This document shows, piece after piece, positions 16,747 through 32,552 of a DNA stretch of 32,552 bases. The notes beneath the pieces were generated by a model, which worked only from the letters and a program-made list of their open reading frames with translations, was not told the DNA's origin and made no database searches. The position numbers were made by a program, and so were the translations under genes. Numbering within the stretch: the first letter of the stretch is position 1; the number at the start of each line of letters is the position of its first letter. This DNA comes from Candidatus Staskawiczbacteria bacterium (GTDB lineage: Bacteria > Patescibacteriota > Minisyncoccia > Minisyncoccales > Staskawiczbacteraceae): positions 1 through 32,552 of the forward strand of contig CAIMDW010000004.1 in assembly GCA_903839895.1 (NCBI GenBank), read 5' to 3'.

Positions 16747-16818
16747 AAGTTTTATTTTAATACCAAATAAACTCACCGCTCAGTGAGTACGCATAAGATA
16801 TATTTATTTTCTTTGAGG

Positions 16819-17400
16819 TTACTTTCCGCCGATAACTTCGTCAATCAAGCCGTATTTTTTAGCTTCTTCTGCAGTCAAATAAAAATCCCGGTCGGTATCT
16901 TTTACCACCTTAGCCAAGGGCTGTCCTGTGTGGGAAGAGATAATTTTATTCAACTTTTCTTTCATATGCAAAATCTGCTTTGCAGTGATTTCAATGTCTG
17001 TGGCTTGCCCCTGCATGCCTCCTGCAACCTGGTGCAAAAGTATTTCAGCATTTGGCAAGGAAAACCGCTTTCCTTTGCTTCCTGCCGTCAAAATAACGGC
17101 CGCCATTGAGGCTGTAAGGCCTATACAAATGGTGGAAACGGGGCACTTTAAAAACTGCATTGTGTCATAAATGGCTAATCCGGCTGTAACTGAACCTCCT
17201 GGGCTGTTTATATAAAGCTTTATATCCCTTTTTGAGTCTTTGGAAGCCAGATAAAGCATCTGGGCGATTACCACGTTGGCGTTCATATCTGTAACCGGAC
17301 CCGCAAGAAAAATAATGCGCTCTTCTAAAAGCCTTGAAAATATATCGTATGCGCGCTCACCGCGCTGCGAACGTTCTACAATAGTTGGCACTATTGGCAT
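16819..17400 (-). CDS. clpP: ATP-dependent Clp protease proteolytic subunit
   Basis: [37 protein letters not shown] (Ser), LLHQ (His), [18 protein letters not shown]. Confidence 0.97.
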
Positions 17401-17446
17401 TTACTTGTGTAATTTTTAATTTCTAATTACTAATACGCGTAACTTA

Positions 17447-18724
17447 TTAAGAAAGATTTTCCAGCAATTGGAAGATTTTTTCATTATGAATTACACCTTT
17501 AGTATACTCTTTCAGCTGATTTATGTCAATTTGGGCCAGCTGGTCTTTGGAATAGTTTTTTATCGATTTTTCCACTTCTTCCTGCACTTCTTTGTCGGAA
17601 ACCTCCACCTTTTCCTGCTTGCCTATTTCCCTCAAAACTAAAAAACCTCTCAGCCTCTTTTCGGCTTCTTTCTGGTAGGTTTCTTTCATTTCTTCTTCGG
17701 TCTTTTTAATGGAAGCCAAATACTGCTCGAAGCTTATTTTCAAATTCTGATTTATTCTGTTCTTCAAATCTGCCAGCAAGTTTTCCTTTTCATATTCCAC
17801 CATGGCTTCGGGCGTTTCAAACTTGGCGGACTCTGACACTTTATCCAAAATTTCGCTCCTTACTTTCTGTTTTTCAGCTTCCTTTTTTTCCATTGTTATG
17901 CCTTCTTTCATATTTTCTTTCAAGGCCAGCAAAGTATCGAAAGCTCCCAATTCTTTGGCAAACTCGTCATTTATCTCTGGCAACTCCATTTTTTGCACAG
18001 AAACCATTTTCACTTTGAAAATCCCTTCTTTGCCCGCCAAATCTTTCCTTGGGGAATTGTCCGGGAATTTCACGGCAATTTCTTTTTCGTCGCCCGCCTT
18101 CATGCCCGCAACTCCGTCTTCAAATCCTTGCATGAATCCTCCTTCCCCTAAAATGAATTTATCATCCACGTCTTTGCCTTCGTTTATGTCTTTATTCTGA
18201 TATTTTATTTCCACAAAGTCTTTTTTATCGGCCGCATCATTTTTCAAGGTGAATTTTGCCCTGGTTTTCTGCAAATAATTTATGGAATCTTGCACTTCTT
18301 CTTCGGTAACCGAAATGTCGGGGTACCCTTCGGGTCGTTTGATTTTTTTGACAATTTCCTTGTAATCTGGCAATTCAACTTCAGGCAAAACTGTTATGAC
18401 AGCTTTAAAGACAAAAGGATTTCCTTTGGCAATTTTAACAATGGAAACCTCCGGTTGCCCGACAGCTTCCAATTTGCTTTCACGGATATAATCTGTATAA
18501 ACGTGCTGGACGGCGTGGTCTCCAGCCTCCATAAGCAACGCTTCGGGCTTTATTTTGTCTTCCACCATTTTGGCCGGAGCTTTTCCTTCGCGGAATCCGT
18601 CAACTTTCACATGGTGCTTTAAATGCTCCAAAGCATGCTCTGAATGCTCAGCAAATTCCTCGGCTGTAAGCTCAAAAGTTATTTCTATTTGGCTCTTTGG
18701 CAATTTTTTTTGTTCTGCTTTCAT
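17447..18724 (-). CDS. tig: Trigger factor
   Basis: Ribosome-binding loop GFREGKAP, FKBP-like domain (GFEDGVAGMKAGDEK...LAGKEGIFKV), LPEINDEFAK. Upstream of clpP. Confidence 0.95.
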   Translation of the reverse strand: MKAEQKKLPKSQIEITFELTAEEFAEHSEHALEHLKHHVKVDGFREGKAPAKMVEDKIKPEALLMEAGDHAVQHVYTDYIRESKLEAVGQPEVSIVKIAKGNPFVFKAVITVLPEVELPDYKEIVKKIKRPEGYPDISVTEEEVQDSINYLQKTRAKFTLKNDAADKKDFVEIKYQNKDINEGKDVDDKFILGEGGFMQGFEDGVAGMKAGDEKEIAVKFPDNSPRKDLAGKEGIFKVKMVSVQKMELPEINDEFAKELGAFDTLLALKENMKEGITMEKKEAEKQKVRSEILDKVSESAKFETPEAMVEYEKENLLADLKNRINQNLKISFEQYLASIKKTEEEMKETYQKEAEKRLRGFLVLREIGKQEKVEVSDKEVQEEVEKSIKNYSKDQLAQIDINQLKEYTKGVIHNEKIFQLLENLS

Positions 18725-18752
18725 ATATTTTACTTAATAAAAAACTGCATTC

Positions 18753-18781
18753 AGTTTAGCAGAATTTAACCAAAACTTCAA
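18753..18781 (-). promoter_or_regulatory. sigma70-type promoter for tig-clpP-rny
   Basis: TTGAAG-17 nt-TAAACT with an extended -10 TG. Confidence 0.55.
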
Positions 18782-19966
18782 CTATTTAACGGGAAAAATA
18801 ATCATATAATTAGGGATTACCCCTCCTGTGTTCCTGATTTGCTCCCATTTGATTTGCTGAGGACCTAATTTATTTTCATCATTTGGCGTGGGGAATTCCT
18901 GGCAAGAAGTCCACAATCCCTCAGGATCATCTTTTTGCGGATTAAAATAAATTAGTAAAACCACATAATTTCCGTTTATTATTATTGAAGAAATATTTTC
19001 GCCGGCCAGAGACTGCTCTGTTCTGCTGGTGCAATTTCCATCTTTATCATATTTAACGCACTGCTTTTCGCTTTCTGGAACGTTTGTAAATTTTAAATCT
19101 CCAAGCGCTCGTATATAAAATGATTTGCCAAATCCTGTTTTAATTTCAGAATTTCCAACCTTTAAATATCCTCCGCTGGACTTATTGCATTGCGCAACCA
19201 AATCGTTAACATTACTGCTCAATATATTGTCAAAACATGATTTTCGATAAAAATAAACTCCGTCTCCATTTGGCTCTGGATTAAATTTATAAATTGAGGC
19301 AGAACTGGCAAATGGCGTAATATCTTGGCAATTTGCGTTCGGGTTAATATATTGGCATTTGCCCCAAAAATTCGTTTGTTCAAATAAAGTTGATATGTAA
19401 TAAGTATTATTTTCGACATCTGGTACAATATTAACAGAGTTTATTTGATTTCTTAAATCCTTTCCAAAATCGGCAACGCTGGATGTATAAGGATATGTGT
19501 TTGTCCCAGGGCAAGCATCTTTATAAAAATAAACTCCAGGTGAGCCTATTTTCACGGTCAATGATGTCGGAGGCGGCAGTTTTTCAAGCTTAAAAACATT
19601 CAATTGGGGATTTATCGTAGTTGCAATCAAATAAGTCAAAGTCAAAATCAGAAGTCCGGATATAGCGCTTACGACTCTTTCTTTCGCTTCAGATAAATAA
19701 CTGGAGTTTATCGGTGACAAAAGATATAAAACGCCAGCCCAAGCCAGCCCGATAAAAATCGCAAAGCTTCCCACAATCCAACCAACGTTTAAAATATATG
19801 TGACGAACGCGGGTAATTCTGTGGACGCTGTTACGCTATGCCCTGCGATTTCCGGATACACAGCTTCAAGAGTTACGGCTAAAACTTTATTTATTGCCAA
19901 AAACAAAATTAACAAAGCTGTCAAGCCCGTCTCCAATAAAATATTTTTTCCTTTTTTATTAAGCAT
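18782..19966 (-). CDS. T4SS pilin (VirB2/TrbC-like) domain fused to an ectodomain with beta/gamma-crystallin-like motifs
   Basis: Signal peptide (VLA), two hydrophobic helices around AGVLYLLS...EAKERVVSAISGLLIL...TINPQL, a Pro-rich linker, then NQINSVNIV...LFEQTNFWG. Confidence 0.75.
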   Translation of the reverse strand: MLNKKGKNILLETGLTALLILFLAINKVLAVTLEAVYPEIAGHSVTASTELPAFVTYILNVGWIVGSFAIFIGLAWAGVLYLLSPINSSYLSEAKERVVSAISGLLILTLTYLIATTINPQLNVFKLEKLPPPTSLTVKIGSPGVYFYKDACPGTNTYPYTSSVADFGKDLRNQINSVNIVPDVENNTYYISTLFEQTNFWGKCQYINPNANCQDITPFASSASIYKFNPEPNGDGVYFYRKSCFDNILSSNVNDLVAQCNKSSGGYLKVGNSEIKTGFGKSFYIRALGDLKFTNVPESEKQCVKYDKDGNCTSRTEQSLAGENISSIIINGNYVVLLIYFNPQKDDPEGLWTSCQEFPTPNDENKLGPQQIKWEQIRNTGGVIPNYMIIFPVK

Positions 19967-19968
19967 CA

Positions 19969-21540
19969 CTATTGCTCTGGATACACATAAACCCAGTTTA
20001 ATTTGTCATTTCCGTTTGCAACGAAAGAGCTTACGCCCAACCTTGGCACAGATCCATTTGTTGCCGAATAATCAGCATAGTCAAATGTCTGGCAATATAC
20101 CACGGGCCCGTTTGCTCTTGCGCACATATGATTCTCAACATCGCAAGTATAATCAGTTTGACCTGAATACCAATGACCCATCTGACAATCGCTATTCGTA
20201 TTACAGGTTACTAAAGAATAAAGCGCAACCAAATATTTTCCATTCAACCGCATAGATCCTGGACAATCCTGAAAATTTTCACAACCGTTTACAGAACAAA
20301 GATGAGTAATTGAATTGTATGGTTGGCCGGCAGCAGTATCAGTTTCCACGCATGTGCCTCTATCCATGCAGCTTTGGCCCCAATCCTTATAGCAATTTGA
20401 ATCATCGTTAGCTTCACATCCATAGCCGCGACAAAGTCCAACATATGGGTCGCAAGTTTCACTATGATAGAACAAGCTGGAACGGCAATCAGCATTGGTT
20501 TTACAAGAAGTACTATTATAACATGTGTAATTATTTTCGCATCTCCTATATTGCGCTTTCGACGGATCTAATCCTTTTTGGCATTTCGCATCGGTTGAGC
20601 ATGTATAATCAATGGTTTTGTTTTCTTTGCAAAAAGTCGGCGGGCAAGTAGCCCGTAATTCTTGCGCAACACCCGTTCCATTATAGTCATAACACATTTG
20701 TTCAGCTTTCATAATGTATGATCTATTGTTTGGCATATCTAGAGTTTTCACTATAAGCTCATTTGAAATATTCACTTTTCCGTTATTGAAATTCATATCC
20801 TTCACATTATCCCATGGACCGCTATAAAGGGTAACACCATTTCCAGATGAGGTTTTATTCGAAACGTTCAATCGGATAATAGTGAGTGACGCGCCAGCCG
20901 ATGGCTGACCTTCATAAAATGCGTTACAGCCTTCTTTAATTTGCGGCAGAATGCATTCTCCTCCATTTTGGTAACCCGCATTCCTGTGATAGATAACCCC
21001 ATAATAAATATCATTTGCCGGATCGTTTACGATCTTATAAGAAACCATTTTGCCAGGATATTGCGAAGGCAAATCGCCAGATGAAATAATTGGAGCAGAA
21101 GCATCGCCCTGGCAATTTTCCTGAAGATAAATATAAACACCCGATTTTGCTGACGGCGCAACAATTGATGGAGGATTTGTCAAAGCTTCAAATGGTAATT
21201 TTAATAAATTCGGGTCAATTGTTTTTATGATTGCAAAAGAAGCTAAAGTCAAAACCAGTCCCAAAACAGCGCTTTTCATCCTATCTTTTGCATCATTATG
21301 CGATTCAATATTCGGACTGATAAGCCCTACGGCCCCAATTACGAATGATATCAACGATAAAGCTCCGGCGACAGAAATGGCAAAACCGAAAATATAACTT
21401 ACATATTGGCCCAATGTCGGATTATCAGACAAGCCTGGCAATTTTACTTCCAAAGCCGCTAAAGCCATGCCTCCGCTTAATGATAAAAAGGCCACGCAAA
21501 ATAAAAACAGCAAATATTTCTTTTTATTTTTTTTAATCAT
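19969..21540 (-). CDS. T4SS pilin (VirB2/TrbC-like) domain fused to a Cys-rich ectodomain
   Basis: Signal peptide (ALA), GQYVSYIF...DAKDRMKSAVLGLVL...TIDPNL pilin block, about 27 Cys by hand count with C-x-T-[ND]-x-x-C units. Confidence 0.75.
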   Translation of the reverse strand: MIKKNKKKYLLFLFCVAFLSLSGGMALAALEVKLPGLSDNPTLGQYVSYIFGFAISVAGALSLISFVIGAVGLISPNIESHNDAKDRMKSAVLGLVLTLASFAIIKTIDPNLLKLPFEALTNPPSIVAPSAKSGVYIYLQENCQGDASAPIISSGDLPSQYPGKMVSYKIVNDPANDIYYGVIYHRNAGYQNGGECILPQIKEGCNAFYEGQPSAGASLTIIRLNVSNKTSSGNGVTLYSGPWDNVKDMNFNNGKVNISNELIVKTLDMPNNRSYIMKAEQMCYDYNGTGVAQELRATCPPTFCKENKTIDYTCSTDAKCQKGLDPSKAQYRRCENNYTCYNSTSCKTNADCRSSLFYHSETCDPYVGLCRGYGCEANDDSNCYKDWGQSCMDRGTCVETDTAAGQPYNSITHLCSVNGCENFQDCPGSMRLNGKYLVALYSLVTCNTNSDCQMGHWYSGQTDYTCDVENHMCARANGPVVYCQTFDYADYSATNGSVPRLGVSSFVANGNDKLNWVYVYPEQ

Positions 21541-21571
21541 ATTTTTGATTCTATTGTTTTATTTTACCTTA

Positions 21572-24115
21572 TTATTTCGTTACAGTCTCTTTTTGGCAAC
21601 AAAACCAATTATCTGTAAGATATAAACCAGAAACATTTCCCAGTTTTTGCCCATAGCATCCCGTATAATCCTTGCCATTGAATTTTATTTTCCTTGTGTT
21701 AATCGGAGGCATCAATTCATATAAAACCTTACTGCAACTAGATAGCGTTGTTTCAATTCCATAAATATTATTTTGTAAGCTGCAGCTATTTGTCTGTTTT
21801 CTAGAATAAGTCAGTTCCGCTAAGATTCCAGCAACCGTTTTCTTTATTTCTGCGCCGTTTATACTTGCGCTTGCCCGTATTAGCTGTTGTAAGTAAGTTA
21901 TAATTTGCTGGCATGAATTCTGCTGGTTTGGAATTAATGTGCAACTACACTTCTGCTGGCTATATTGGCAATTAGTAGTGCAAATTAATTGTTCTTTTTC
22001 GTCTAATGCATCCGATTTGCAATAATCCAAAATGACAGGATTATACACTGCATTCCCAATTTTTTTCATTAAGGCAATCAGCGAGTCAATACCATTAGAG
22101 CTGTTTATTGACTGCTCTGCCCAATTAATGGAATCGTCAACTGCTTGACCGAGTGGAATTTCCCTATTTGCAGGGCAATTATAGTTGGCCCCTAGAGGCG
22201 TAGAAGGAAGAGACCCCACGCTTGTACTATTATTCGCCCACCAATTGTCTTCGCAATAAAAAGTCAAAGGATCGTCATTGTATGAATATTGGTTACATTG
22301 AGTTCCAGCCGGGCAACTACAATTAGGGCAGTTTGAGCCTATTACTGTTCCTGTCTGATACGGCTGGCCTCTGTTTGAATAGTTATCAGATCCATTTTTG
22401 CATAGGTAAGAATTATTAAGGCAATAATTTGCATTCCCAGATTCATAATTAGGATCTGCGCTTTGGACACCGCAATATGCAAAAGCTTGCGCCTTTTGGG
22501 TGTTAAATAAGCAATTTGCAGGCTTATCTAACAGGCACTGTGAATCGCTATCGCATTGCTTTGCGCAAGAATCGTATTGTTCCGAGCATTTTGTAGGATC
22601 TAATTTTTCGCAATTTGTTTTGCAATCAGTCTGGCAAGAACTAATGCAATTGCCGAAATTTTGCGAAGCACCCGAACCGTTTACACAAGGCCGGTTGCTA
22701 TAAGCTGTTTGGATGCACTTTTCTTGATTTTCTAAACAAGCCTTGTCCTCTGGCTGGCAAAAACAACTTTTATAAACCTGCATAGCCTGATCTGAAGAAT
22801 CCGGACATGCATCGCTGCATTTTTTAAAGCAAGTAGAATTATCATAATTAAATCCAACGCAATATTTCGATGAATCTATGGGGGATTTGCTTATCGGATT
22901 TATAAATGGCTCCTTTAAAATGATTTTTTGTTCTTTTTTGGTTTGCTGGTAATTTTTTGTAAGATCTATATATGAAGCCGCCAATTTGCATTTATTTAAA
23001 GCGTTTACCGCCTGATTCAACATAAACTCATCTTCGTTGACAGATTTCTTTATCTCGCTTATTTTTATATTAAAATACATCATTTGCTGCAAAAGATTCA
23101 ATTTATTCCAATTGTCTTTATTTATTGTGTTTCCACTTTGAACAAAATTCTCAATATCATCACAGTTTGAATGGCCTCCTGAAATGGGGTTTGGGCACCT
23201 GAATTCATCCAATCCATGATATGTCACGGGTTTTGCATTGCAATTTGCATTTCCGTTGCTATTTTCAAATGTAACATCAACTGGTCCGTGTTCAATTTTA
23301 TCTTTTACTCCTTCAGGGCAACAATCTTTTGGGGTTGTATTAGAACAACCTGGTCCTGTACACGTACTGGTGCATTGATAATTTACATCATTAGAACAGT
23401 TATCTTTTGTAGGCTGATTGCAAATAATTTTTTTGTCGGAACCATTGGCATTCTCGCAAGAACATTGACTCATTAAATTATTTATTTCTTTTGATAAAGC
23501 GGAAACCGCTTTTGCTTTATTTTCGGCTCCCACGACTAATTGAGAAAGACAATCCGACCTGTCGTGATTGGCATATGCAGGACTGATAGGATTTCCTGAT
23601 GCGTCAAAACCGAAACAATAATCCATTGATTTAATCAGAAGGTTTTCTGTTAAAGTCCCAATAGGAATTTCCTTATACGTGGAAATTGGTATGCCATTAT
23701 AAGATGGCTGGCCGCCCAAAGAACCAAAATTTATAAAAGTTAAAATTCCAAATTTGCAGGAGGTAAGGCTGGAATTTATTGTAATTGCAATCAAAGAGGC
23801 TAAAAAACAAAGCAAAAATCCCGAGATACCAGCTTTAACCCATTCTTTAGCATCACTAGTGAATTTACCCCCAAGATAAGCAAGCAAATATTTGATTCCT
23901 CCATATGCAATGACAATCCCGGCAACCACATAAGCTGCATTCACAATGAATCCATAAATATAGCACACATAATCTCCAACATTGGAAGTCTCATTTACAG
24001 AATACCCTAAGATAGTGGGGTATTTAAGTTCTAAAGCTAAAACAAAACTGGCCTTCATTAAAAAGGCAAAAATAATTCCTAAAAAAATGAATATTTTTCG
24101 GGTTTTTTTTGCCAT
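21572..24115 (-). CDS. Giant T4SS pilin-domain protein with a very Cys-rich ectodomain
   Basis: Signal peptide (VLA), GDYVCYIY...YGGIKYL...DAKEWVKAGISGFLL...TINSSL pilin block, about 56 Cys by hand count in 847 aa. Confidence 0.75.
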   Translation of the reverse strand: MAKKTRKIFIFLGIIFAFLMKASFVLALELKYPTILGYSVNETSNVGDYVCYIYGFIVNAAYVVAGIVIAYGGIKYLLAYLGGKFTSDAKEWVKAGISGFLLCFLASLIAITINSSLTSCKFGILTFINFGSLGGQPSYNGIPISTYKEIPIGTLTENLLIKSMDYCFGFDASGNPISPAYANHDRSDCLSQLVVGAENKAKAVSALSKEINNLMSQCSCENANGSDKKIICNQPTKDNCSNDVNYQCTSTCTGPGCSNTTPKDCCPEGVKDKIEHGPVDVTFENSNGNANCNAKPVTYHGLDEFRCPNPISGGHSNCDDIENFVQSGNTINKDNWNKLNLLQQMMYFNIKISEIKKSVNEDEFMLNQAVNALNKCKLAASYIDLTKNYQQTKKEQKIILKEPFINPISKSPIDSSKYCVGFNYDNSTCFKKCSDACPDSSDQAMQVYKSCFCQPEDKACLENQEKCIQTAYSNRPCVNGSGASQNFGNCISSCQTDCKTNCEKLDPTKCSEQYDSCAKQCDSDSQCLLDKPANCLFNTQKAQAFAYCGVQSADPNYESGNANYCLNNSYLCKNGSDNYSNRGQPYQTGTVIGSNCPNCSCPAGTQCNQYSYNDDPLTFYCEDNWWANNSTSVGSLPSTPLGANYNCPANREIPLGQAVDDSINWAEQSINSSNGIDSLIALMKKIGNAVYNPVILDYCKSDALDEKEQLICTTNCQYSQQKCSCTLIPNQQNSCQQIITYLQQLIRASASINGAEIKKTVAGILAELTYSRKQTNSCSLQNNIYGIETTLSSCSKVLYELMPPINTRKIKFNGKDYTGCYGQKLGNVSGLYLTDNWFCCQKETVTK

Positions 24116-24131
24116 TGGCCAGCCAATGAAA

Positions 24132-25940
24132 TTAATTTTGCGCTTGTTCTATTTTCCTTTTCGCTTCGCGTTTTATCGCCACTTCCTGAGGATTTGTCGT
24201 GATAATATTGCTTTCCGTCGGACTGGCGACTACCGCCAGATACACGTGCTTTCTGCCTGCAAAAAATAATCCTTCGCCAACTGCCGCATCAATCAATAAA
24301 TACTTTTCCTGCTCGGTCAGATTAAAAGTTTGCTGGACAGCTTCAATATCAGCAGTAGACTGCTTCATTAAAAATTGCAAAGACGAGTTAGTAATAATTG
24401 CTTTCCCATAAGCTGATCCTGCAAAATCAGCCACGTTCTGGGTGATAGTTGTCACTCCCAGCCAATATTTTCTGCCTCTTTTTGCCAATCCAAAAAGAAA
24501 AGATGCTCCGTCTTCTGTCTGCATCAGCCACCAAGCTTCATCAATAACCAAAATTCTTTTCTTTAAATTAGACCTGACAATATTCCATATATATCGCATA
24601 ATTATATACAAAGCAATCGGCCTCAACGAATCTTCCATATCCCTTATTCCAAAAACCACAAAGCTTTTATCCATTTTAATATTGGACTGCTGGTTGAAAA
24701 AATCCGAAAAAGTTCCTTTGGTGAATTTGCCGATTCTTTTTACCAATGATTCCGTGCCAGTCATACTTTCCAAAACTTCCTGAAAATCCGACATTAAAGG
24801 CGTGTTTTGCGCCCAGGTGGCAGGATCCGATTGCGGAGTAATGTCTCTTATGGCATAAGTCTGCGTAAGCGCTTCGTCTAAAACGCTGTCTTCTTCTGCG
24901 CTTAATCCGCCAAGCATAATGCGCAAAAGCCCAACCAGGTTTATAACGTTAGATCTCAAAACGTCTTCAGGATTGTCATCTGGCCCGGGAAGCGGCAAAT
25001 CAAAAGGGTTCAAATGGTTTGGACTAGTCAAAGAAATTTTCAAAAATGCTCCACCTACGGCATCTGCCAAATATTCATATTCGTTTTCAGGGTCGACAAT
25101 TATACAGTCTACTCCCTGCATCAAATACCTTAAAATTTCCAGCTTGATGGCAAAAGATTTTCCGGCTCCAGATTTGGCAAACACTACCATGTTTGCATTT
25201 TCCAAACTGAACCGGTCAAACAAAACCAAAGAATTATTATGCCTGTTTACGCCGTACAAAATTCCTTCGTTTGAACTCAAGTCAAAACAAATAAATGGAA
25301 AGCAAGTGGAAAGGGGGGCCGTATCCATTGGCGTATGCACTTCAATCAAATCCATTCCATAAGGGCTGGTGGAAATAAATCCTTCCTTCTGCTTGAACAA
25401 AGCCGGTTTTATATAAATTAATCTCGATTCAAAGATAGATCTTAAGGTTAATTCTGTGTCGCGCAATTCTTTTTCGGAATTTTCGTAAACCGTAATATAA
25501 AGCCCCAGGCGGAACATTTTTTCCTGGGCCGTCATTAAATTATCTCGCAAAGTTTCAATGTCTTTGTAGGCTGTTTCCAGTGCAGGATCACGGATTAATC
25601 CTTTTTCTTCCCTTTCCAAAATTTCAGAAGAAACTTCGGTGACTTTTTTCCTTAATTTTTTTAAAATCAGTTCCGAGCTGACAGGATGTATGAAAAACGA
25701 GATATCCATTGGGGTCGACAAATCAATCACGGGAGAAAACCAGCCTGTATTCAAATACCTGGGATATGAAAAAACAAAAAAAGATTTAGCAAATCTTTCC
25801 CCCAGTTTTATATGGTCTTGCAAGACTCCAATATACGGGGGCGCAATTATGTCTTTTACGTCAAAAGACTCTTCCTGGAAAATTTTGTCTGTCAGGTCTT
25901 CTTCCTTTTTTTTACCGAAAATGCTGTTTAAAAATGCCAT
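24132..25940 (-). CDS. virB4: VirB4-like type IV secretion ATPase
   Basis: GILYGVN...LVLFDRF...NANMVVFAKSGAGKS (Walker A), IIVDPENEY, LNPFD, LVIDEAW (Walker B), KRGRKY...ITQ. Confidence 0.92.
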   Translation of the reverse strand: MAFLNSIFGKKKEEDLTDKIFQEESFDVKDIIAPPYIGVLQDHIKLGERFAKSFFVFSYPRYLNTGWFSPVIDLSTPMDISFFIHPVSSELILKKLRKKVTEVSSEILEREEKGLIRDPALETAYKDIETLRDNLMTAQEKMFRLGLYITVYENSEKELRDTELTLRSIFESRLIYIKPALFKQKEGFISTSPYGMDLIEVHTPMDTAPLSTCFPFICFDLSSNEGILYGVNRHNNSLVLFDRFSLENANMVVFAKSGAGKSFAIKLEILRYLMQGVDCIIVDPENEYEYLADAVGGAFLKISLTSPNHLNPFDLPLPGPDDNPEDVLRSNVINLVGLLRIMLGGLSAEEDSVLDEALTQTYAIRDITPQSDPATWAQNTPLMSDFQEVLESMTGTESLVKRIGKFTKGTFSDFFNQQSNIKMDKSFVVFGIRDMEDSLRPIALYIIMRYIWNIVRSNLKKRILVIDEAWWLMQTEDGASFLFGLAKRGRKYWLGVTTITQNVADFAGSAYGKAIITNSSLQFLMKQSTADIEAVQQTFNLTEQEKYLLIDAAVGEGLFFAGRKHVYLAVVASPTESNIITTNPQEVAIKREAKRKIEQAQN

Positions 25941-25944
25941 AATG

Positions 25945-26598
25945 TTATTTTAAGAGTTCGGGCAGAATTTCAGGGTAATATCCCACTTCTGCCTGATCTG
26001 GGTGATGTATAGACCAGAAAAGCTCAATCAATTCGGGCGTGGTCAAAGGAATTGCTTCCAGCCCGCATCTTCGTAATCCGGTTGCCACATATTCCATTCT
26101 CTGCCAAAGCTGGGTTTTGCATCTTTCAAAATCTTCATCTTTCATTGCTTCTTGATTTGCGCCTTTATTGAAAGGATTCAGCTGTTTTCCAGCTCCCTTC
26201 ATTCCTAGCGCTTCTATAATATTGTAAGGGACCACTACATAAAAGCTTTTTGTCATTACCACGTCGCCCACAACCATATTTTTTATGAATTCGCGATAAG
26301 AAGCAGTCTGTTCCCGAAGCAAAGGGTTTGTCTGTTTGTCTTCCAAATCTTTTAAGCTGTCCAAATACGGAGTAATGTTTATATTCCTGGATTGGATTAC
26401 AATCTGGCAGAAGAAATCCAAAGAATTCAAAAAGCTTTGGAAGGCATAAATTACCGCTGTCTGTTCCTCTTCGGATTTCAACGCAAAATTTATGGAAGAA
26501 ACCATTAAAATTCCGCGGACGGAATTGTTTTTCAAAAGCAAAACTCCCTCCCTTATGTCTTTTACTTCCAAAAATTCTTGTGTTGCTGATTCTGGCAT
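25945..26598 (-). CDS. T4SS accessory protein (TraC/VirB4 N-terminal-like domain)
   Basis: TQEFLEVKDIREG...VSSINFALKSEEEQ...FLNSLDF..QIVIQSR...KSFYVVVP. Lies between the prgI-like gene and virB4. Confidence 0.8.
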   Translation of the reverse strand: MPESATQEFLEVKDIREGVLLLKNNSVRGILMVSSINFALKSEEEQTAVIYAFQSFLNSLDFFCQIVIQSRNINITPYLDSLKDLEDKQTNPLLREQTASYREFIKNMVVGDVVMTKSFYVVVPYNIIEALGMKGAGKQLNPFNKGANQEAMKDEDFERCKTQLWQRMEYVATGLRRCGLEAIPLTTPELIELFWSIHHPDQAEVGYYPEILPELLK

Positions 26599-26606
26599 AT
26601 TTAAAA

Positions 26607-27008
26607 TTATTTTGTGTCTATTGCTGTTTTAGTCCTTTTTAAATGGCTTGTCTGCGCCTGCAAGACCGGAGCAGTTTCAATTTTTTTAATTTGCGTGCGG
26701 GATATCGGCTTGAAAGGGTAGGGCGATTCTTTTTTCTTCCAAGTGTAATCTTTGCCATGCAATGAAAATCCTATTGCCCCCAAAATCATATCCAAAATTG
26801 GAGTCCCATTAACTGTTCCAAAAGCTAAAATTGCGGCCCCAATAAAAATTGTCCCGCCGAGTATGAAAAACAGAAACCGGGGGAGTATGAAATACAGAAA
26901 AAAGCAGGCCACTCCTGCTCCCACCAAATAGAAAAATTGCCTAAAGGAAATAAAGAAAGCTATCTTGCTTTCTGATTCGATAAATTGCGGAATAGGGTAT
27001 TGTTCCAT
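26607..27008 (-). CDS. PrgI family (VirB3-like) membrane protein
   Basis: MEQYPIPQFIESESKI...ISFRQFFYL, two TM helices, NG-x-P, then YTWKK. Start taken at ATG 27008. Confidence 0.88.
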   Translation of the reverse strand: MEQYPIPQFIESESKIAFFISFRQFFYLVGAGVACFFLYFILPRFLFFILGGTIFIGAAILAFGTVNGTPILDMILGAIGFSLHGKDYTWKKKESPYPFKPISRTQIKKIETAPVLQAQTSHLKRTKTAIDTK

Positions 27009-27065
27009 ATTTTTATTTATTATATCACGTATAAAAAAGCACAAGCAAGAACACTTCTCAACATA

Positions 27066-27094
27066 TTGACAAGTAGTTTATAATATGGTATATT
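27066..27094 (+). promoter_or_regulatory. sigma70-type promoter for the SPFH gene
   Basis: TTGACA-17 nt-TATATT with an extended -10 TG. SD-like GGGAG at 27151-27155, 8 nt before the ATG. Confidence 0.7.
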
Positions 27095-27163
27095 AAAAGA
27101 ATAAGAACATTAACATACACAGCTCATAGAGCTGTAATAATTTCTGATTCGGGAGATACGACA

Positions 27164-28354
27164 ATGGAATATCTGCTTTACGGATTGCTGTGGCTTGTGG
27201 GAATCATCGCCACGCCATTCGCGGTTTTTTTGGCAGGAAAGTACATTATTTTCTTGTTAGCCAAAGCTAATATCCTCTGGACAACCGTAGAACAAGGATG
27301 GTGCAAAATCGTCCTGAAATACGGCAAATACAGCAAGATAATCAACCCCGGCTTAAGGTGGCTTGGGCTTCCGGGGATAAACTCTCTTTATGCACGCAAA
27401 ATGAAGTTTTTGAAAAGCGTCATTAAAGAAGACGGCACTATTGCGGTGGAAATTCACAAGGATGAGAAAATTACGAGCTTTAAAACCACCAAATACCCCT
27501 ATGCTCTCCCTTTCAAGGACGAAGAGGATTGCCGAGGGTTGCCGCTTTCTGGCGTGCTGACGATTAACGGAAGCATGGCAGATGGCTTCAAGATGTTTTT
27601 CGTTGCCAGCGATTGGTATGCTACTATTGTCCTTTTGGCTCTGAGCTGCTTTCGCGATATCATCACTACAATTTCCTATGAGGAAATTACTGGGCAGTAT
27701 TCAAACCAAAAAGCGGCTACAAATGTTGTTAGGGAAAAGATTGCCGAACTTTTGTGGAAGAAAATGAATTCTCCACGCGAAGGCGACAAACTTTCGGTGG
27801 TTGACGAACTGCTGGAAATCTACGGATTCGAAGTGGATTCTGTGGAATTGGCAAGCATCGACCCGCCCGCCGAGTGGAGAGCCATCACTCTTGCGCCCTA
27901 TAAGGCTCAAAAGGAAAAAGAAGCGGCCGAAGAACAAGCCAAGGCCAGCGCTGCTCTTTTTGGTGACACCAATCTGGCCTTAAAAGACTGGATAATAGAC
28001 CATCCCGATGCTACCCAAGGCCAAATTGAGAACAGGCAAGCAGAATTGGCCCAAAGGGCGTACCTTAAAGCTGGGGGTCAGTACCAGCGAATCGAAGGCC
28101 TAGAGAATGCGCAATATGTCGGTTTCGGCGGCGGAAGAGGCGGCATGGGGTTTCTTGCCGGTGGCAAACAAGGCGGTTCCCGCAAAAGCAAAAGCGGCGA
28201 AAGAGGTTCTGCCAACGACGATCCGAAAGGCTTATTGAAAAAATCTCCAACTGAGCTTTCGGCCGAAGATCTCGCTGAACGTGACGAAATTGTGCGGAAA
28301 AGAGGCCAAAAGAACAAAGGGAAGTGGCGGCAAGAAGACGACGAAGAGGAGTAA
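27164..28354 (+). CDS. Divergent SPFH/Band-7 domain membrane protein with Gly/Arg-rich and charged C-terminal tail
   Basis: N-terminal TM, VEQGWCKIVLKYGKYSKIINPGLRWLGLPG, YGFEVDSVELASIDPP followed by an Ala/Glu-rich helix (AQKEKEAAEEQAKA). Confidence 0.8.
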   Translation: MEYLLYGLLWLVGIIATPFAVFLAGKYIIFLLAKANILWTTVEQGWCKIVLKYGKYSKIINPGLRWLGLPGINSLYARKMKFLKSVIKEDGTIAVEIHKDEKITSFKTTKYPYALPFKDEEDCRGLPLSGVLTINGSMADGFKMFFVASDWYATIVLLALSCFRDIITTISYEEITGQYSNQKAATNVVREKIAELLWKKMNSPREGDKLSVVDELLEIYGFEVDSVELASIDPPAEWRAITLAPYKAQKEKEAAEEQAKASAALFGDTNLALKDWIIDHPDATQGQIENRQAELAQRAYLKAGGQYQRIEGLENAQYVGFGGGRGGMGFLAGGKQGGSRKSKSGERGSANDDPKGLLKKSPTELSAEDLAERDEIVRKRGQKNKGKWRQEDDEEE

Positions 28355-28360
28355 ACAAAA

Positions 28361-28399
28361 GGGCGGCATCGCTAATTGCGATGCCGCCCCATTTTTTTT
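28361..28399 (+). terminator. Strong intrinsic terminator (probably bidirectional)
   Basis: Perfect 12-bp stem GGGCGGCATCGC/GCGATGCCGCCC followed by T8, between convergent genes. Confidence 0.88.
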
Positions 28400-28401
28400 G
28401 C

Positions 28402-28860
28402 TTATCCTATTGGTTCTCTATATCTGTCAGATTTTGATGCTGGAGAAAGTGAAAAATCTTTTTCGGGCAATTTTCTTTTTGGTTTAGGTGTTTCAATTTT
28501 TTTAATTTGATCTTCATTTATTATATCTGGCAATTTATGTACGCCCGGAGATTCTATCTTAACTGCATTATTTTCTTTAAAATTTATCTCTTTTGCGAAC
28601 GGCAAAAACTTTTCTTTTAACTCTGATAAAATTATTTTCGCGTTTTCTTCGTTTGTTTCAAGATATTTTTCCAGCAAAGCCACAAAGCTATCCTCCGCTA
28701 TTTTTTTTGCATAAAGATCTTTGCAGGCGTTTACGACTGTTGTCAGTTTAGATTTTTCTGCAGAACTGTCGTTTTTAATTCCAAATCTTTTAAAAAGATC
28801 CAAAAAGATAGTTGCTCCGCTCGCGCCCTCAGGCAGGTCAAAAATTATTCTTTTTTCCAT
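28402..28860 (-). CDS. Hypothetical soluble protein ending in a D-x-Y-R-E-P-I motif
   Basis: 152-aa ORF, 16 nt downstream of the VirB6-like gene. Helical N-domain, Pro/Lys-rich linker, C-terminus SDRYREPIG. Confidence 0.75.
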   Translation of the reverse strand: MEKRIIFDLPEGASGATIFLDLFKRFGIKNDSSAEKSKLTTVVNACKDLYAKKIAEDSFVALLEKYLETNEENAKIILSELKEKFLPFAKEINFKENNAVKIESPGVHKLPDIINEDQIKKIETPKPKRKLPEKDFSLSPASKSDRYREPIG

Positions 28861-28876
28861 AATTAAAAATTTAATT

Positions 28877-30910
28877 TTATAATCCTGCGGCTATCATTTC
28901 GTTCCTCTTTTCATCCAGTTTATTATATTCTTCAATCGCTTCCATCGGCGTGCCCACTCCAGCATCAGAGGGGTCTAATAATCTCGGATATTTTGTTTTA
29001 AGCTTATTCATTTCATTCATTAATGTGTCCTTGCTAGTAGATATAGCATCAGCTTTAGCTCCCGACGTCATTTCCATTGCCTTTGTCATTTTTTTGACAG
29101 GAGTATATTTTGCAAAATTGCCGGATTTAAGCGTAGGAATGCTGTAATCCCTGATATCTTGGACACTGGCCCTTTCATATCCGTCTTTGGTAACTTCTTC
29201 TTTGGCTGTGTTTAATTGCGTTGAAGTTGCATTTTTTATGCCAACATTAAATTTGCCCCTAAGCTTTTCATTGACTAGATAATCGTTATCGGCGCGCTTG
29301 TTCGGGTCTTTCTTTTCCTCTTGGGACCTGACGCCAGTGGCTCCCAACACTTCCCCGAATTTAATCCTTCCCATCATCCTTTGATTTATTTGGGCCTGCT
29401 CATTTTCAGTCACATTTGTCATGTCAGCTATTTTTACTCCGCCAAATTTCTTTGCGGCATCGGTCAAATCATTATTATCTGAAACAGCTTTTATAGCAGC
29501 GCCGCCACGCAAACCTCGCCCAATCATAGCTTCTTTTTGTATCCTATCTACCGTGTTTATATCGCCTGAAGCTTTAGCTGCAGAATATTGCGTTGATATG
29601 TCTTTTGCCGCTTTATCCACACGCTGGGATTTTGCGGCGGCTGTTGAGCCTTCCTGCTTCCAGCCCATAACTTCTGAAAATCCGCCCAGCCGGTCTTTTG
29701 AAGCCTGAACCGCGTTTGAAACCTTGTTTCCTGTCCATTTATCTGCTGTCTTCAATGCTGCGCTGCTTCCTGCGGCTGCCGCTCCCATGGCAAATCCAAC
29801 TCCGCCGGTCACAGCTCCTCTTACGGCTCCCGCCGCAATGTCGGCGATTCCGCCGGTTTTGCGAATCATTTTATAACCGACTATAAGGAAAATGAATGAA
29901 ACAAACAGGAGAAAAATATTTACGTCACCGGTTGTGTTTCCCGCCACAATTGTTTGAGTAGCTAAATAAATGAAAAACGAACCGAAAACTCCTACAAAAC
30001 TCCATTTCAAAAAATTATCCCACCATTCCGACTGATATTTTTTCAGACGGGAAGAAGGGAACATCCAAAAAGCAAAAGCAATAGGCGAAAGTATATAAAG
30101 TACTGCAAGTATGGCATATCTGGCCGCAAATAAAATGGCCATAATTGCAAAAGTATAAGCCGCATATAATAGAATAACCATGAACATTGCACAGGCAAAT
30201 AAAAATTTACCAGGATCGTTTACAATATTTTCGTTGGCTACCTTCACAGAATCTGGATTATTCCCCGTGCTATTTAGCGAATTTTCCACATAAATATTAA
30301 TAGCGTTAGACAATGAATCAACATTTTGGCTGGTTTTTTCGTTTCCTAACAACCCATTCATGGTTATATTTGAAGCGTCTATGATAACTCCGCAAAATAA
30401 TCCTGAAAAATTGATTAAAAGAGCAACAACAATTATCCTTCCCAGGATTTTTTTTGCGGCATACTCCTGGATCCTTAAAGCTGTGGCAATTCCCACAATC
30501 ACAAAACCCAAAACAACAATCATGTCAGCAAGATCTCTGACTCTTCCCCAAACCAATGAAAAAGTCGGGTCATTGGTAATTGTGCGCTTTACAAAATCAG
30601 AGCTTAATACATATACCAGAGATTTTGAAGCTAGCCAAAAAGCAGCTTGACCGATGCTCATAAGGAAATATCCAAGCCCTAAAACTAAACTGGTTTTAAA
30701 ATCTGCTTGAGCGCCAGACACTGTTTGCCCAACTTTATGCGCTCCCCATAATACCCCACCCAAAGCGACTACCGCCCCCACTAAAAGATAAGTTCCAGAA
30801 ATTGTCAGAGCCAATCCCTTTTCCTTTTTTTCAGGGTCAAAAATCGGCGAGAAAAAATCTTTGATTTTTTCTTTAAACACGTAATATTTTGTGAATAAAT
30901 TTTTGACCAT
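28877..30910 (-). CDS. Extended VirB6/TrbL-like polytopic membrane protein
   Basis: WGRVRDLADM...IIVVALLINFSGLFCGVIIDASN...ARYAILAVLYILSPIAF...EWWDNFLKWSF, then a Gly/Ala-rich segment and a long hydrophilic tail. Confidence 0.82.
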   Translation of the reverse strand: MVKNLFTKYYVFKEKIKDFFSPIFDPEKKEKGLALTISGTYLLVGAVVALGGVLWGAHKVGQTVSGAQADFKTSLVLGLGYFLMSIGQAAFWLASKSLVYVLSSDFVKRTITNDPTFSLVWGRVRDLADMIVVLGFVIVGIATALRIQEYAAKKILGRIIVVALLINFSGLFCGVIIDASNITMNGLLGNEKTSQNVDSLSNAINIYVENSLNSTGNNPDSVKVANENIVNDPGKFLFACAMFMVILLYAAYTFAIMAILFAARYAILAVLYILSPIAFAFWMFPSSRLKKYQSEWWDNFLKWSFVGVFGSFFIYLATQTIVAGNTTGDVNIFLLFVSFIFLIVGYKMIRKTGGIADIAAGAVRGAVTGGVGFAMGAAAAGSSAALKTADKWTGNKVSNAVQASKDRLGGFSEVMGWKQEGSTAAAKSQRVDKAAKDISTQYSAAKASGDINTVDRIQKEAMIGRGLRGGAAIKAVSDNNDLTDAAKKFGGVKIADMTNVTENEQAQINQRMMGRIKFGEVLGATGVRSQEEKKDPNKRADNDYLVNEKLRGKFNVGIKNATSTQLNTAKEEVTKDGYERASVQDIRDYSIPTLKSGNFAKYTPVKKMTKAMEMTSGAKADAISTSKDTLMNEMNKLKTKYPRLLDPSDAGVGTPMEAIEEYNKLDEKRNEMIAAGL

Positions 30911-30922
30911 AAATACTTGTAA

Positions 30923-31501
30923 TTATATTTTTAAAAAATTCGGCAAAAACCGGTTGCTTTTTTTAAGATAACTGTCATAGTCTGAATTTGTTTTCCTAAT
31001 CTGATTTTCTTCAATCATGTAATGGAAATAAAGGCAAATATGGTTTAGACAGGCGAAAAAGAATAACGACGGGCTCAGCAAGCATAGGGCGCTTCCGAAT
31101 GTTATTGAAAAAAATATGTAATATGAAGGATGCCTGACGTATTTATATATGCTATCAAGGCTCTTGTTGTTTTTCGTCGCTATGCAGCTCGGAAAAGATT
31201 CCTCGAAAAAATTCACATAAATATAAAAAATAATGGAAAACAGGCAAAAGAATACTCCTATAAAAACAAAGAATGTGCTTAATGCTGGCAAGTTGCCAGC
31301 ATTATTTTCTATCAGCCTTTCAACTGTAAAAAAAATTGTCAGATAAAAGAAAATATAAAAAGGAATCGTAAGCGGCCACGCTTTATCGTGCTTATCCGGT
31401 ATGGCTTTTTTGATTTTTTTATTTGAGCTGTAAGAATTAAAAATGTAAAATACCCAGGCGATTGAAACAAATAAATATAAATAAGAATTGCTATCCAGCA
31501 T
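30923..31501 (-). CDS. Isoprenylcysteine carboxyl methyltransferase / PEMT-like membrane methyltransferase
   Basis: IYKYVRHPSY...IEENQI...YDSYLKKSNRFLP signature and several TM helices. Confidence 0.85.
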   Translation of the reverse strand: MLDSNSYLYLFVSIAWVFYIFNSYSSNKKIKKAIPDKHDKAWPLTIPFYIFFYLTIFFTVERLIENNAGNLPALSTFFVFIGVFFCLFSIIFYIYVNFFEESFPSCIATKNNKSLDSIYKYVRHPSYYIFFSITFGSALCLLSPSLFFFACLNHICLYFHYMIEENQIRKTNSDYDSYLKKSNRFLPNFLKI

Positions 31502-31621
31502 ATTTATTCATTATAACACGAATTTAGAAACAAGAGTCAATGGATTAACTAACAATAAAAAAGCTCCGAAGGAATTACCCTTATAGAGCATTTGATCTAA
31601 CTAATATTCTATTCGATTAAG

Positions 31622-31930
31622 TCAATGGCTAGCTGGCGTCTTTTTATCATTTGGATTCGCGATTTTTATCGGGATTTTGGCACTCATTATTCGATCGACC
31701 ATTTTTCCCGGTTCATCTGAACCCATCCAGCGCAATGATTGGTCTTGGCTTGTGGCAGATTGTTGTCGCCGCAGAATGGTATCAGGAAATACGAAAGCGA
31801 ATAAAGCAAAGATGATAAGCAGAAGCACCAAAATAAAAAATGGGCCGTTTATCCGTTTTTTTTCCGCCATTTCCTTGAATAATGATTCTTTATCTTTTTC
31901 GGACAATTCTGACAGGGTGATGGTCGACAT
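31622..31930 (-). CDS. Orphan single-pass membrane protein
   Basis: 102-aa ORF with one TM segment. Perfect SD AAGGAGG (31940-31946) 9 nt before the ATG. Confidence 0.75.
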   Translation of the reverse strand: MSTITLSELSEKDKESLFKEMAEKKRINGPFFILVLLLIIFALFAFVFPDTILRRQQSATSQDQSLRWMGSDEPGKMVDRIMSAKIPIKIANPNDKKTPASH

Positions 31931-31993
31931 GTTTTTTATCCTCCTTGGATAATAGGTTTTAAAATATTAGGAAATAAACAGTTCCCAATATGT

Positions 31994-32552
31994 CTAATTT
32001 AACAATACCACTGTAAAATTGGCTGTCAAGGAAATCCAGTCTGAAATGGTTAATGTTTCAGCTCTCTGAGTTGGCTGAATATTGTTTTTTGAAAGCCACG
32101 AGCTGACGGATTTTTTATCCAGACTTAAAGATTTGGCAAGGTTTCCCGCCAGCTGTTTTCGTGGTTGGACAAATCCGGCTTTTACGATTTTAAAAAACAA
32201 ATCTGGCTTAACCTCCGGCTTTTCTTTTTTTGGAATTATTTTTATTATGGCTGAATCAATTTTTGGCGAAGGCCAAAAGCTATTTTTTGAAACGTAGGAA
32301 ATAATTTTTGGGTCTGCATAAAATTGTACAGAAACGGCCAGCAAATTCATATCGGGAACTTTCGAACAGATTCTTTGCGCCACTTCTTTTTGCAGCATCA
32401 AGACAATTTCTTCAGGCTGATTTTTTTCCTCCAAGAATTTTCTGATTAGCGGGGAAGTCAGGTAATAAGGGATATTGGCAACCAGCTTATATTTTTCGGG
32501 AATGTCTTTAAATTTTAAAATATCGCCATTTATCACCTCTATATTATTTAAG
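31994..32552 (-). CDS. rsmA: 16S rRNA adenine dimethyltransferase, 3' part (5' end outside the window)
   Basis: VANIPYYLTSPLI, LMLQKEVAQRI, SFWPSPKIDSAII, RAETLTISDW. The frame stays open to the window end. Confidence 0.95.
   Translation of the reverse strand, partial: LNNIEVINGDILKFKDIPEKYKLVANIPYYLTSPLIRKFLEEKNQPEEIVLMLQKEVAQRICSKVPDMNLLAVSVQFYADPKIISYVSKNSFWPSPKIDSAIIKIIPKKEKPEVKPDLFFKIVKAGFVQPRKQLAGNLAKSLSLDKKSVSSWLSKNNIQPTQRAETLTISDWISLTANFTVVLLN

Follow-up and report, generated by a model that had tools for sequence, protein, structure and literature searches.

Large proteins with pilin-type modules encoded directly after virB4 in the type IV secretion locus of a Candidatus Staskawiczbacteria bacterium

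The type IV secretion systems (T4SSs) of Patescibacteria are the closest described relatives of the locus treated here, which occupies positions 18782-30910 of a stretch of 32,552 nucleotides (the window; positions 1 to 32,552 of contig CAIMDW010000004.1, assembly GCA_903839895.1) from a Candidatus Staskawiczbacteria bacterium. According to the available text of two studies (PMC12102498, PMC10633639), such systems comprise an MPF-FATA-like VirB4, TrsD, PrgI, VirB6 and VirB2-like pilins, lack a relaxase and have ksgA nearby. They are also treated in PMC12857230 and PMC11665869, and the accessible part of the latter reports that epibiotic growth requires the T4SS in the one species of Patescibacteria tested, calling its function completely unknown. 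The window has a monoderm-type VirB4, TrsD, PrgI/VirB3, a putative VirB6 and VirB2-like pilin modules near virB4 in common with Southlakia epibionticum (SEML1_0006-0019), as presented in the available portion of the survey by Quinonero-Coronel et al. 2025 (PMC12102498), and both the systems described there and the window locus are chromosomal, close to ksgA/rsmA and without a relaxase or a nearby coupling protein. The published systems, as far as the same two texts go, have small pilins in arrays of 2-11 (PMC12102498, PMC10633639), whereas in the window and in 59 of 63 related loci the pilin-module genes that follow virB4 are mostly 300-2095 amino acids (aa) long, and in this genome the short pilins are encoded elsewhere.

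The machine itself is known; the long pilin-module proteins as standard genes after virB4 are the part for which no published description was found. An earlier note, made from the letters of this DNA, had proposed an under-described system, a description that does not hold, as the same parts have been published for the T4SS of Patescibacteria (available text of PMC12102498 and PMC10633639). Regarding long fusions of the VirB2 module, no description was found in the literature; the main texts of PMC12102498 and PMC10633639 are silent on them and on their modular ectodomains, and Table S3 of PMC12102498 may already list such proteins. Likewise, the literature yielded no description of a betagamma-crystallin fold fused to a pilin hairpin. 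A preprint on a 'novel pilus system' (PMC13278184) was considered as a precedent and set aside, as its accessible text concerns unrelated Ig-like donor-strand pilins. T4SS-pilin domains have been reported among the highly expressed unknown extracellular proteins of Patescibacteria, according to the available part of PMC10936435. In the window, the three large genes are the following:

21572-24115, minus strand: 847-aa protein with a signal peptide, a pilin-type hairpin and a mostly helical ectodomain (predicted) with 56 cysteines
19969-21540, minus strand: 523-aa protein with a signal peptide, a pilin-type hairpin and a predicted two-domain betagamma-crystallin ectodomain with cysteine-rich insertions
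18782-19969, minus strand: 395-aa paralogue with a signal peptide, a pilin-type hairpin and a predicted crystallin-type ectodomain with 8 cysteines

Gene positions and order agree with those given in the earlier note, and so does the beginning of each protein, where a signal-peptide-like segment is followed by hydrophobic helices at about residues 46-80 and 90-120 (hydropathy). In AlphaFold2 (AF2) models, the hairpin spans residues 43-108 of the 523-aa protein (helices 43-73 and 78-108; DNA about 21190-21540) and residues about 46-113 of the 847-aa protein (helices 46-81 and 89-113; DNA about 23750-24115), with a predicted local distance difference test (pLDDT) value of mostly about 80-91 in this block; the hairpin of the 395-aa protein is encoded at about 19586-19969. 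The N-terminal blocks of the three proteins are mutually 31-35% identical (tblastn E 1e-5 to 2e-12). A phmmer search of the full library with the 523-aa protein returned 4176 cluster representatives at E<=1e-3, 80 of them at E<=1e-30, and the median length among the best 150 matches was 450 aa. An alignment of the 523- and 395-aa proteins with 100 homologues chosen from the 150 listed served as the long-pilin family, termed A2. PF18895 matches 87 of its 102 members (best E 4.2e-14) and TrbC/VirB2 matches 3, and the comparison of A2 with six short pilins of the same genome by hhalign gave a probability of 97.4% (E 9.3e-12, 86 columns). The 847-aa protein aligns with A2 over residues 6-122 (hhalign 98.5%, E 1.8e-15), and a hidden Markov model (HMM) derived from A2 matches the N-terminal module of the 395-aa protein (E 2e-20, residues 40-125); the A2 profile found nothing meaningful among PDB sequences (a lectin, E 0.25). 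Judged by this homology, the three large proteins carry genuine T4SS_pilin-type N-terminal modules, and the pilin character that the earlier note had ascribed to these blocks was supported through their homologues.

The module has a signal peptide, two hydrophobic helices, a short basic loop and profile homology in common with the VirB2/TrbC/TraA pilins (PF04956, PF18895). Unlike these conjugative pilins, which are about 70-120 aa long, the window proteins add 270-730 residues of folded ectodomain, and the long forms constitute a subfamily with invariant residues of its own, namely E31, R87 and the TINP end (numbering of the 523-aa protein), which are missing from the short pilins.

For comparison, 80 related loci were fetched via VirB4 (48-90% identity), including loci of Staskawicz-, Nealson-, Zambryski-, Pacei- and Moranbacteria. 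The order RsmA, VirB6-like, PrgI, TrsD, VirB4 recurs among them, with RsmA present in 44, the VirB6-like protein in 50, PrgI in 71 and TrsD in 76 of the 80. Where at least 3 kb followed virB4, pilin-module open reading frames (ORFs) were found there in 59 of 63 loci, the exceptions being L030, L061, L068 and L069. Among 98 complete pilin-module ORFs, 2 have at most 150 aa, 11 have 151-300, 55 have 301-600 and 30 have more than 600 (median 501 aa, longest 2095; 85 above 300 aa), and in 95 of the 98 the start of the module falls among the first 100 residues. Sorted by type, the 120 pilin-module ORFs of the 80 loci comprise 13 of the 847-aa type, 30 crystallin forms, 74 other long forms and 3 short ones (<=160 aa). 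The scan of the other long forms covered 63 of the 74, incomplete ORFs, duplicates and already scanned ones being excluded; PF18895 was matched by 45 of these 63 at E<=1e-4, one protein (L080) holds a full Peptidase_M23 domain behind the pilin module (E 5e-32), and Peptidase_C39_2, lamin-tail, Crystall and lustrin-type cysteine repeats were found as further domains. In other relatives the same module is joined to SpaA-like, InlB B-repeat, fn3, partial M23 and M10 domains. The display of adhesins proposed in the earlier note is too narrow a description, as the hairpin carries M23 and C39-like peptidase domains in relatives.

In Gram-positive systems, membrane-anchored cell-wall hydrolases such as PrgK, TraG of pIP501 and CD419 are encoded after virB4, in the role of VirB1. 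The place directly after virB4 is the same, and the pilin module of relatives bears M23, in full in L080; in contrast to the Gram-positive wall hydrolases, the 847-aa protein of the window has neither the M23 segment nor a hydrolase match, and the anchor is a pilin hairpin instead of a single helix. In S. epibionticum, according to the available text of PMC12102498, the genes for peptidase and lysozyme that follow shortly after virB4 are essential.

Regarding the ectodomains, the AF2 model of the 523-aa protein (pLDDT 77.7 overall, above 90 in most of the crystallin domain) presents two beta domains, the second with low-confidence cysteine-rich insertions. Its ectodomain has microbial betagamma-crystallins as top Foldseek matches (3hzb, E 5.6e-4, TMt 0.71), and a second look with VIA aligned it with gammaD-crystallin (4jgf_B, Z 11.6, root-mean-square deviation (rmsd) 3.1 Å, 165 of 170 residues) and with single microbial betagamma-crystallin domains (Z 9.3, rmsd 1.9 Å). 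The ectodomain of the 395-aa protein is matched by the A2-derived HMM (E 1e-32, residues 134-395), and both ectodomains are predicted to adopt the paired Greek-key betagamma-crystallin fold. This fold would be common to the microbial betagamma-crystallins (Protein S, clostrillin, flavollin; DdCAD-1) and the window proteins, by the model for the 523-aa protein and by the HMM for the 395-aa protein; the window proteins differ from them in the cysteine-rich insertions of the second domain and in having no Pfam Crystall match. PF00030 matched no window protein, and in the relative L054 Crystall reached 23.1 bits, under the cut-off of 25.

The AF2 model of the 847-aa protein is mostly helical (pLDDT 86, predicted TM score 0.79). 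Foldseek found no match for its ectodomain at E<=1e-3, the ESM Atlas gave no usable match, and the best result of a wide VIA search, a designed helical bundle at Z 8.0, does not rise above the noise level of helical models. The model suggests a confident helical fold without a known match, and the search, made with the whole 847-residue model, does not prove the fold to be new. For the ectodomain there are 140 homologues, typically of 950-1400 aa, two of which NCBI names 'pilin' (1099 and 1216 aa). Among 120 listed homologues, 5 have an M23 peptidase match and 1 an M10 match, and partial M23 matches occur in 6 of 28 relatives' proteins scanned. The window protein is without the segment of about 260 residues that carries the M23 match in L023 and P0183, and Pfam gave no hydrolase family for it at E<=0.1. 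A conserved HDRxDC was considered as the M23 HxxxD motif and dropped, most family members being without an M23 match; a regular expression for the M23 HxH motif found 1 of 98 sequences and was too strict, and the Pfam matches were used instead.

The three large proteins are also rich in cysteine, with 8, 27 and 56 residues in the 395-, 523- and 847-aa proteins (91 in total), or 2.0-6.6% versus 0.69% for nine of the window's housekeeping proteins. When the 847- and 395-aa ectodomains were modelled as a complex, the score was 0.60 (runs of 0.77, 0.55 and 0.60), compared with 0.00 for the best of three controls; the runs share at least 50% of contacts, and the partner's pLDDT is at least 77. In the calibration, 58 of 80 solved complexes passed the mark, as did 2 of 110 mismatched pairs; only 7 of the 80 solved complexes, but both of these mismatches, passed with a score of 0.60 or less. 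A trio of these protein types recurs in the closest loci, and the predicted contact is a weak hint at a possible assembly of the conserved trio.

In the 12 closest loci, identity to the window amounts to 79-90% for VirB4, 71-83% for TrsD, 58-77% for PrgI and 64-70% for RsmA, compared with 28-43% for the VirB6-like protein. The three large proteins are 27-54% identical in the N-terminal module and 24-49% in the ectodomain, the ectodomains of the 395-aa orthologues lying at 43-49%. The large proteins diverge much faster than VirB4, their exposed parts fastest.

In VirB2 and TraA, both ends of the hairpin are outside the cell and the basic loop is cytoplasmic. By analogy with this known topology, the cysteine-rich C-terminal domains of the large proteins would be extracellular. 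We lean towards the view that the hairpin anchors accessory surface proteins and docks them at the machine, any filament being made of short pilins. This view is taken because one and the same module is found joined to wall hydrolases, to peptidases, to adhesin repeats and to crystallin pairs, because it sits where monoderm T4SSs encode a membrane-anchored hydrolase, and because the long forms have invariant residues of their own. Each large protein would consist of a Sec signal peptide, a VirB2-type hairpin (helix, short basic loop, helix) and a disulfide-rich extracellular domain; the hairpin module would anchor the ectodomain in the membrane and dock it to the T4SS, so that the ectodomains would stand at the outer face of the machine and meet the cell wall and the host surface. 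In this genome they would be two betagamma-crystallin pairs and one large helical domain, and in relatives the same module would bear peptidoglycan hydrolases or adhesin repeats. The six short pilins, whose genes lie on other contigs, would be the likelier building blocks of a filament, if there is one. Gene content, hairpin homology, predicted ectodomain folds, the conserved arrangement and the fast divergence are observations; the topology, the attachment to the T4SS and a function in contact or in remodelling the wall are readings of them.

Several observations weigh against such an anchoring role, or against parts of the picture on which it is built. The large proteins are connected to the T4SS by neighbourhood and homology alone, and the retention of a complete VirB2-type hairpin, not a single anchor helix, could mean pilin-like handling and exit from the membrane, which would favour the alternative of minor or tip pilins given below. 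Taken by themselves, the window proteins are under the PF18895 cut-off (15.5 bits for the 523-aa protein, 14.2 bits for the 847-aa protein and no match for the 395-aa protein), and the 847-aa protein reaches a probability of only 40% against the short pilins (hhalign). No enzyme that would oxidise the 91 cysteines was identified: no homologue of DsbA, DsbB (both of which the earlier note had suggested locating) or Thioredoxin_4 was found in the genome, whose 86% completeness does not allow their absence to be concluded, and the single VKOR match (E 0.13) was not taken as a homologue. Fast divergence is also compatible with relaxed constraint. The ORFs of the related loci come from a naive caller that takes the first start codon after a stop, and their lengths may be overestimated. 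Furthermore, the assignment of the VirB6-like protein (see below) is made with reservation, through 9 of 49 orthologues.

A tentative alternative, less probable than anchoring, is that the T4SS extracts the three proteins like VirB2 and builds them in sparsely as minor or tip pilins, at the tip of or along a filament of short pilins, with the ectodomains carried to the host surface as by VirB5 or by PilY1-type tip adhesins elsewhere. A full conserved pilin hairpin is retained in proteins of up to 2095 aa, the C-terminus of VirB2/TraA in F and T pili lies outside the membrane and the pilus, and short pilins occur in the same genome, which has one T4SS only. The recurring trio and the weakly predicted 847/395 contact (0.60 versus 0.00 for the best control) would also fit, and M23 or C39 domains on the module could target the wall of the host. 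On the other hand, the long hairpins form a subfamily whose E31, R87 and TINP end are missing from the short pilins, and domains of 30-200 kDa would be hard to fit into a tight helical lattice. In addition, the usual target of hydrolases encoded right behind virB4 in monoderm systems is the wall of the cell that makes them, according to the available text of PMC12102498. Type IV pili have large minor pilins and tip adhesins (PilY1-associated complexes, large PilA of Myxococcus) that similarly combine a conserved module with a large variable outer domain; this likeness is one of analogy only, as their pilin fold and assembly machine are unrelated to those of a T4SS.

A more far-reaching proposal, which we regard as rather improbable, is that the VirB2 hairpin has become a general 'export handle' in Paceibacteria: the T4SS would pull proteins tagged with it from the membrane and mount them on the tip of a short-pilin pilus, where a fast-evolving complex of three parts would select the host and open its wall. 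If this were true, it would describe a monoderm T4SS with a pilus and a modular tip, and the host-contact parts would be named for a machine that is essential in one tested Patescibacterium. The tip parts would be the helical 847-aa type and the two crystallin types, and elsewhere M23/C39 enzymes or adhesin repeats.

The earlier note had taken all pilins of the system to be giant, which is wrong for this genome, and according to the corresponding account, which is very improbable, the fusions are its only pilins and polymerise by themselves into a pilus or a membrane array displaying variable domains. No short pilin is encoded in the window, and just 3 of the 120 pilin-module ORFs near virB4 in related loci have at most 160 aa. 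However, the genome (593 kb in 45 contigs, estimated 86% complete; the window corresponds to its contig C4) encodes six short T4SS_pilin proteins (95-120 aa) on three other contigs, far from its only T4SS locus:

C45, 6772-8210: four tandem short pilin genes (99-111 aa; 26-32% identical to the first) beside gyrA at the contig end
C23, 2649-3011: single short pilin gene
C37, 10-297: single short pilin gene

Four of the six are over the PF18895 cut-off and one is also over that of TrbC (PF04956; TrbC/VirB2). In a sample of 61 genomes of the phylum, PF18895 was found in 59, and among the best 150 matches 139 lie in open frames of less than 300 aa and 11 in frames of at least 300 aa, which likewise speaks against giant fusions as the only pilins.

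The remaining genes of the locus, and two features set between them, are as follows; the coordinates of the minus-strand ORFs were verified by ORF calls in the window:

28877-30910, minus strand: 677-aa polytopic membrane protein, putatively VirB6-like ('extended VirB6') by orthology
28402-28860, minus strand: 152-aa soluble protein that closes the upstream unit, without a family match or a hydrophobic segment
28360-28390: hairpin resembling a bidirectional terminator, between the convergent 152-aa and SPFH genes
27164-28354, plus strand: 396-aa SPFH/Band-7 membrane protein, inside the locus on the opposite strand (PF01145, 33.7 bits, cut-off 23.6)
26607-27044, minus strand: 145-aa PrgI/VirB3-like small membrane protein (PF12666) that opens the six-gene unit
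25945-26598, minus strand: 217-aa TrsD-like protein, a free-standing VirB4 N-terminal domain
24132-25940, minus strand: 602-aa VirB4-type ATPase of monoderm (CD1110/MPF-FATA-like) kind, without the N-terminal domain

The 602-aa ATPase is matched by NF045971 (CD1110 family; E 1.6e-106, 357 bits versus a cut-off of 325) from model position 163 of 752 onwards and by P-loop_TraG (PF19044, E 2.4e-29), and also by the VirB4 model of the Mycoplasma integrative conjugative element (ICE), NF045975 (E 7.6e-86, under the model cut-off). The 217-aa protein covers the N-terminal VirB4 positions, 11-119 of NF045971 and 105-213 of NF045975 (E 9.4e-9), and matches TrsD NF041427 (E 1.7e-7, under cut-off) and TraC_F_IV (E 7e-4). 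Since it covers VirB4 positions 11-119 and the ATPase starts at 163, the N-terminal domain of the ATPase is a separate gene here. The 145-aa protein matches PF12666 (E 6.4e-8, 33.5 bits versus a cut-off of 27), and the prgI/virB3-like and virB4 assignments of the earlier note, with PF12666 and NF045971 both over their cut-offs, are well founded.

The virB6-like assignment stands in part. The 677-aa protein has several hydrophobic segments within residues 32-351 and a long hydrophilic C-terminal half, and 9 of 49 orthologues match TrbL/VirB6 PF04610 (best 4e-6) and 2 of 49 TrbL_4; the profile of the orthologues also has a weak match (E 0.099) to the membrane region of TrwI (7o3v_F). The window protein itself has no Pfam or NCBIfam match, and PF04610 finds nothing in its own genome. 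By topology and orthology it may be called VirB6-like, with reservation. The 152-aa protein has no family match in Pfam or NCBIfam and a homologue in only 4 of the 80 related loci.

In the window, the minus-strand genes are co-oriented as the earlier note had described, but it had missed the 396-aa SPFH gene on the plus strand, which splits the locus. Because of this gene and the terminator-like hairpin at 28360-28390, the locus consists of two transcription units. The hairpin, with a stem of 12-13 pairs (10 G-C) and T runs on both strands, is the strongest terminator-like site within 18500-32000, and the best promoter-like site is at 27066-27094 on the plus strand. The first unit would provide the VirB6-like channel protein and the 152-aa protein. 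The second extends from PrgI through the 395-aa gene, its six genes overlapping or at most 31 bases apart, and would provide the core (PrgI/VirB3, the free TrsD-like VirB4 N-domain and the VirB4 ATPase) followed by the three large proteins. An SPFH homologue has the same place and orientation in 11 of the 80 related loci (L012, L013, L017, L023, L024, L026, L046, L051, L053, L066, L091), and it is conceivable that the SPFH/Band-7 protein acts as a scaffold of the T4SS membrane patch. The VirB6-like gene is preceded on its own strand, at a distance of 12 bases, by a gene for an ICMT/PEMT-like membrane methyltransferase (30923-31501, minus strand), which has a homologue at that position in 2 of the 80 related loci only.

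As a separate observation, several relatives have a VirB4 of about 1260 aa, which is interrupted immediately ahead of the P-loop domain by an intein containing a LAGLIDADG endonuclease. Intein_splicing and LAGLIDADG_3 (Pfam) were confirmed in the two proteins scanned (L026:7250-11062 and L084:7262-11059), and the VirB4 of L050, L058, L062 and L067 likely bears an intein, judged by length only; the window VirB4 has none. Four metagenome runs from lake water, all of one study, also contain the stretch in the form of short contigs of low depth; no RNA data set containing it was listed. All 40 listed single-base differences (of 241) fall at 24390-25680, inside virB4, and the pieces listed over the three large genes are identical to the window; the virB4 differences probably stem from contigs of co-occurring relatives that align on the conserved ATPase only.

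The pilin-like module also resembles a component of the Mycoplasma ICE. NF045849 (Mbov_0395), the pilin-like family of that element, is matched by 52 of the 102 A2 members (best E 1.1e-9, under the model cut-off), and NF045975 by the window VirB4 and the TrsD-like protein; the differences are that NF045849 has 80 positions and no ectodomain, that the Mycoplasma genes are on mobile elements, and that all scores are under the cut-offs. On account of these matches to NF045849 and NF045975, the module seems to be of monoderm T4SS heritage, which suggests an arrival together with a monoderm-type T4SS and no borrowing from diderm systems; the 2025 survey (PMC12102498), in its available text, had left this question open.

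Regarding mobility, the locus is flanked on one side by RsmA (PF00398, 2e-31), the ICMT-like methyltransferase and a 102-aa ORF, and on the other by trigger factor (Tig), ClpP, RNase Y and others. The remaining genes of the window are housekeeping (IF-2, RbfA, Dus, RecQ, HtrA, RNase Y, ClpP, Tig), and GC content is even across it. Family searches found no relaxase, integrase or coupling protein (T4CP) among the window proteins, in agreement with the earlier note, which had also given the rsmA and tig flanks. In the 86%-complete genome the relaxase PF03432, the one MOB family searched, was not found, the only integrase is on contig C22, and each T4SS gene is single copy in the assembly. The virD4 genes that the earlier note had suggested looking for elsewhere have counterparts in VirD4-like ATPases on C13 (824 aa) and C5 (487 aa, with a 610-aa neighbour by sequence likeness). 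The two VirD4/TrwB-like ATPase genes of C5 (610 and 487 aa, within about 15300-25650) are each followed by one or two proteins of 551-573 aa with N-terminal paired Cys-x2-Cys motifs, and the region looks like a duplicated cassette.

That the locus is part of an ICE, with the relaxase, coupling protein and integrase just beyond the window, is highly improbable. In favour of it, VirB4 and the pilin-like module show likeness to their counterparts in Mycoplasma and clostridial ICEs (NF045975 E 7.6e-86; NF045971; NF045849 in 52 of 102), contigs C13 and C5 encode VirD4-like ATPases, and genome completeness is only 86%. Against this stand the housekeeping genes on both sides within the window, the rsmA-adjacent chromosomal position in 44 of 80 related loci of many genera, the even GC content, the PF03432 search, the lone integrase on another contig, and the presence of relaxases in few Patescibacteria according to the published survey (PMC12102498, available text). 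The locus is the single chromosomal, non-conjugative T4SS of this genome, typical of Patescibacteria and of an already described kind, and the nearest relatives place it with the Paceibacteria/Staskawiczbacteria. The domesticated, non-conjugative character claimed in the earlier note agrees with the housekeeping neighbourhood and with a relaxase, integrase and coupling protein not being nearby. Finally, a chance resemblance, by which the three would be ordinary secreted membrane proteins with two merely pilin-looking hydrophobic helices, can practically be dismissed: each window protein is below the PF18895 cut-off and a two-helix hairpin is a simple fold that resembles many unrelated hairpins in structure (ranks 3-10 of the wide VIA search), yet there is a profile-profile E of 9.3e-12 to the genome's own pilins, PF18895 is matched by 87 of 102 homologues (best E 4.2e-14) and by 45 of 63 further long virB4 neighbours (E<=1e-4), and the place directly after virB4 is fixed in 59 of 63 eligible loci.

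For annotation, the consequence is that pipelines and HMM surveys count such proteins as 'pilin' regardless of their length, and pilin counts may mix two kinds of protein. For the Paceibacteria branch, it means that the genes right after the ATPase encode large, putatively pilin-anchored surface proteins with swappable, fast-evolving outer domains, not small pilins. These large proteins would be concrete candidates for host recognition and wall remodelling.

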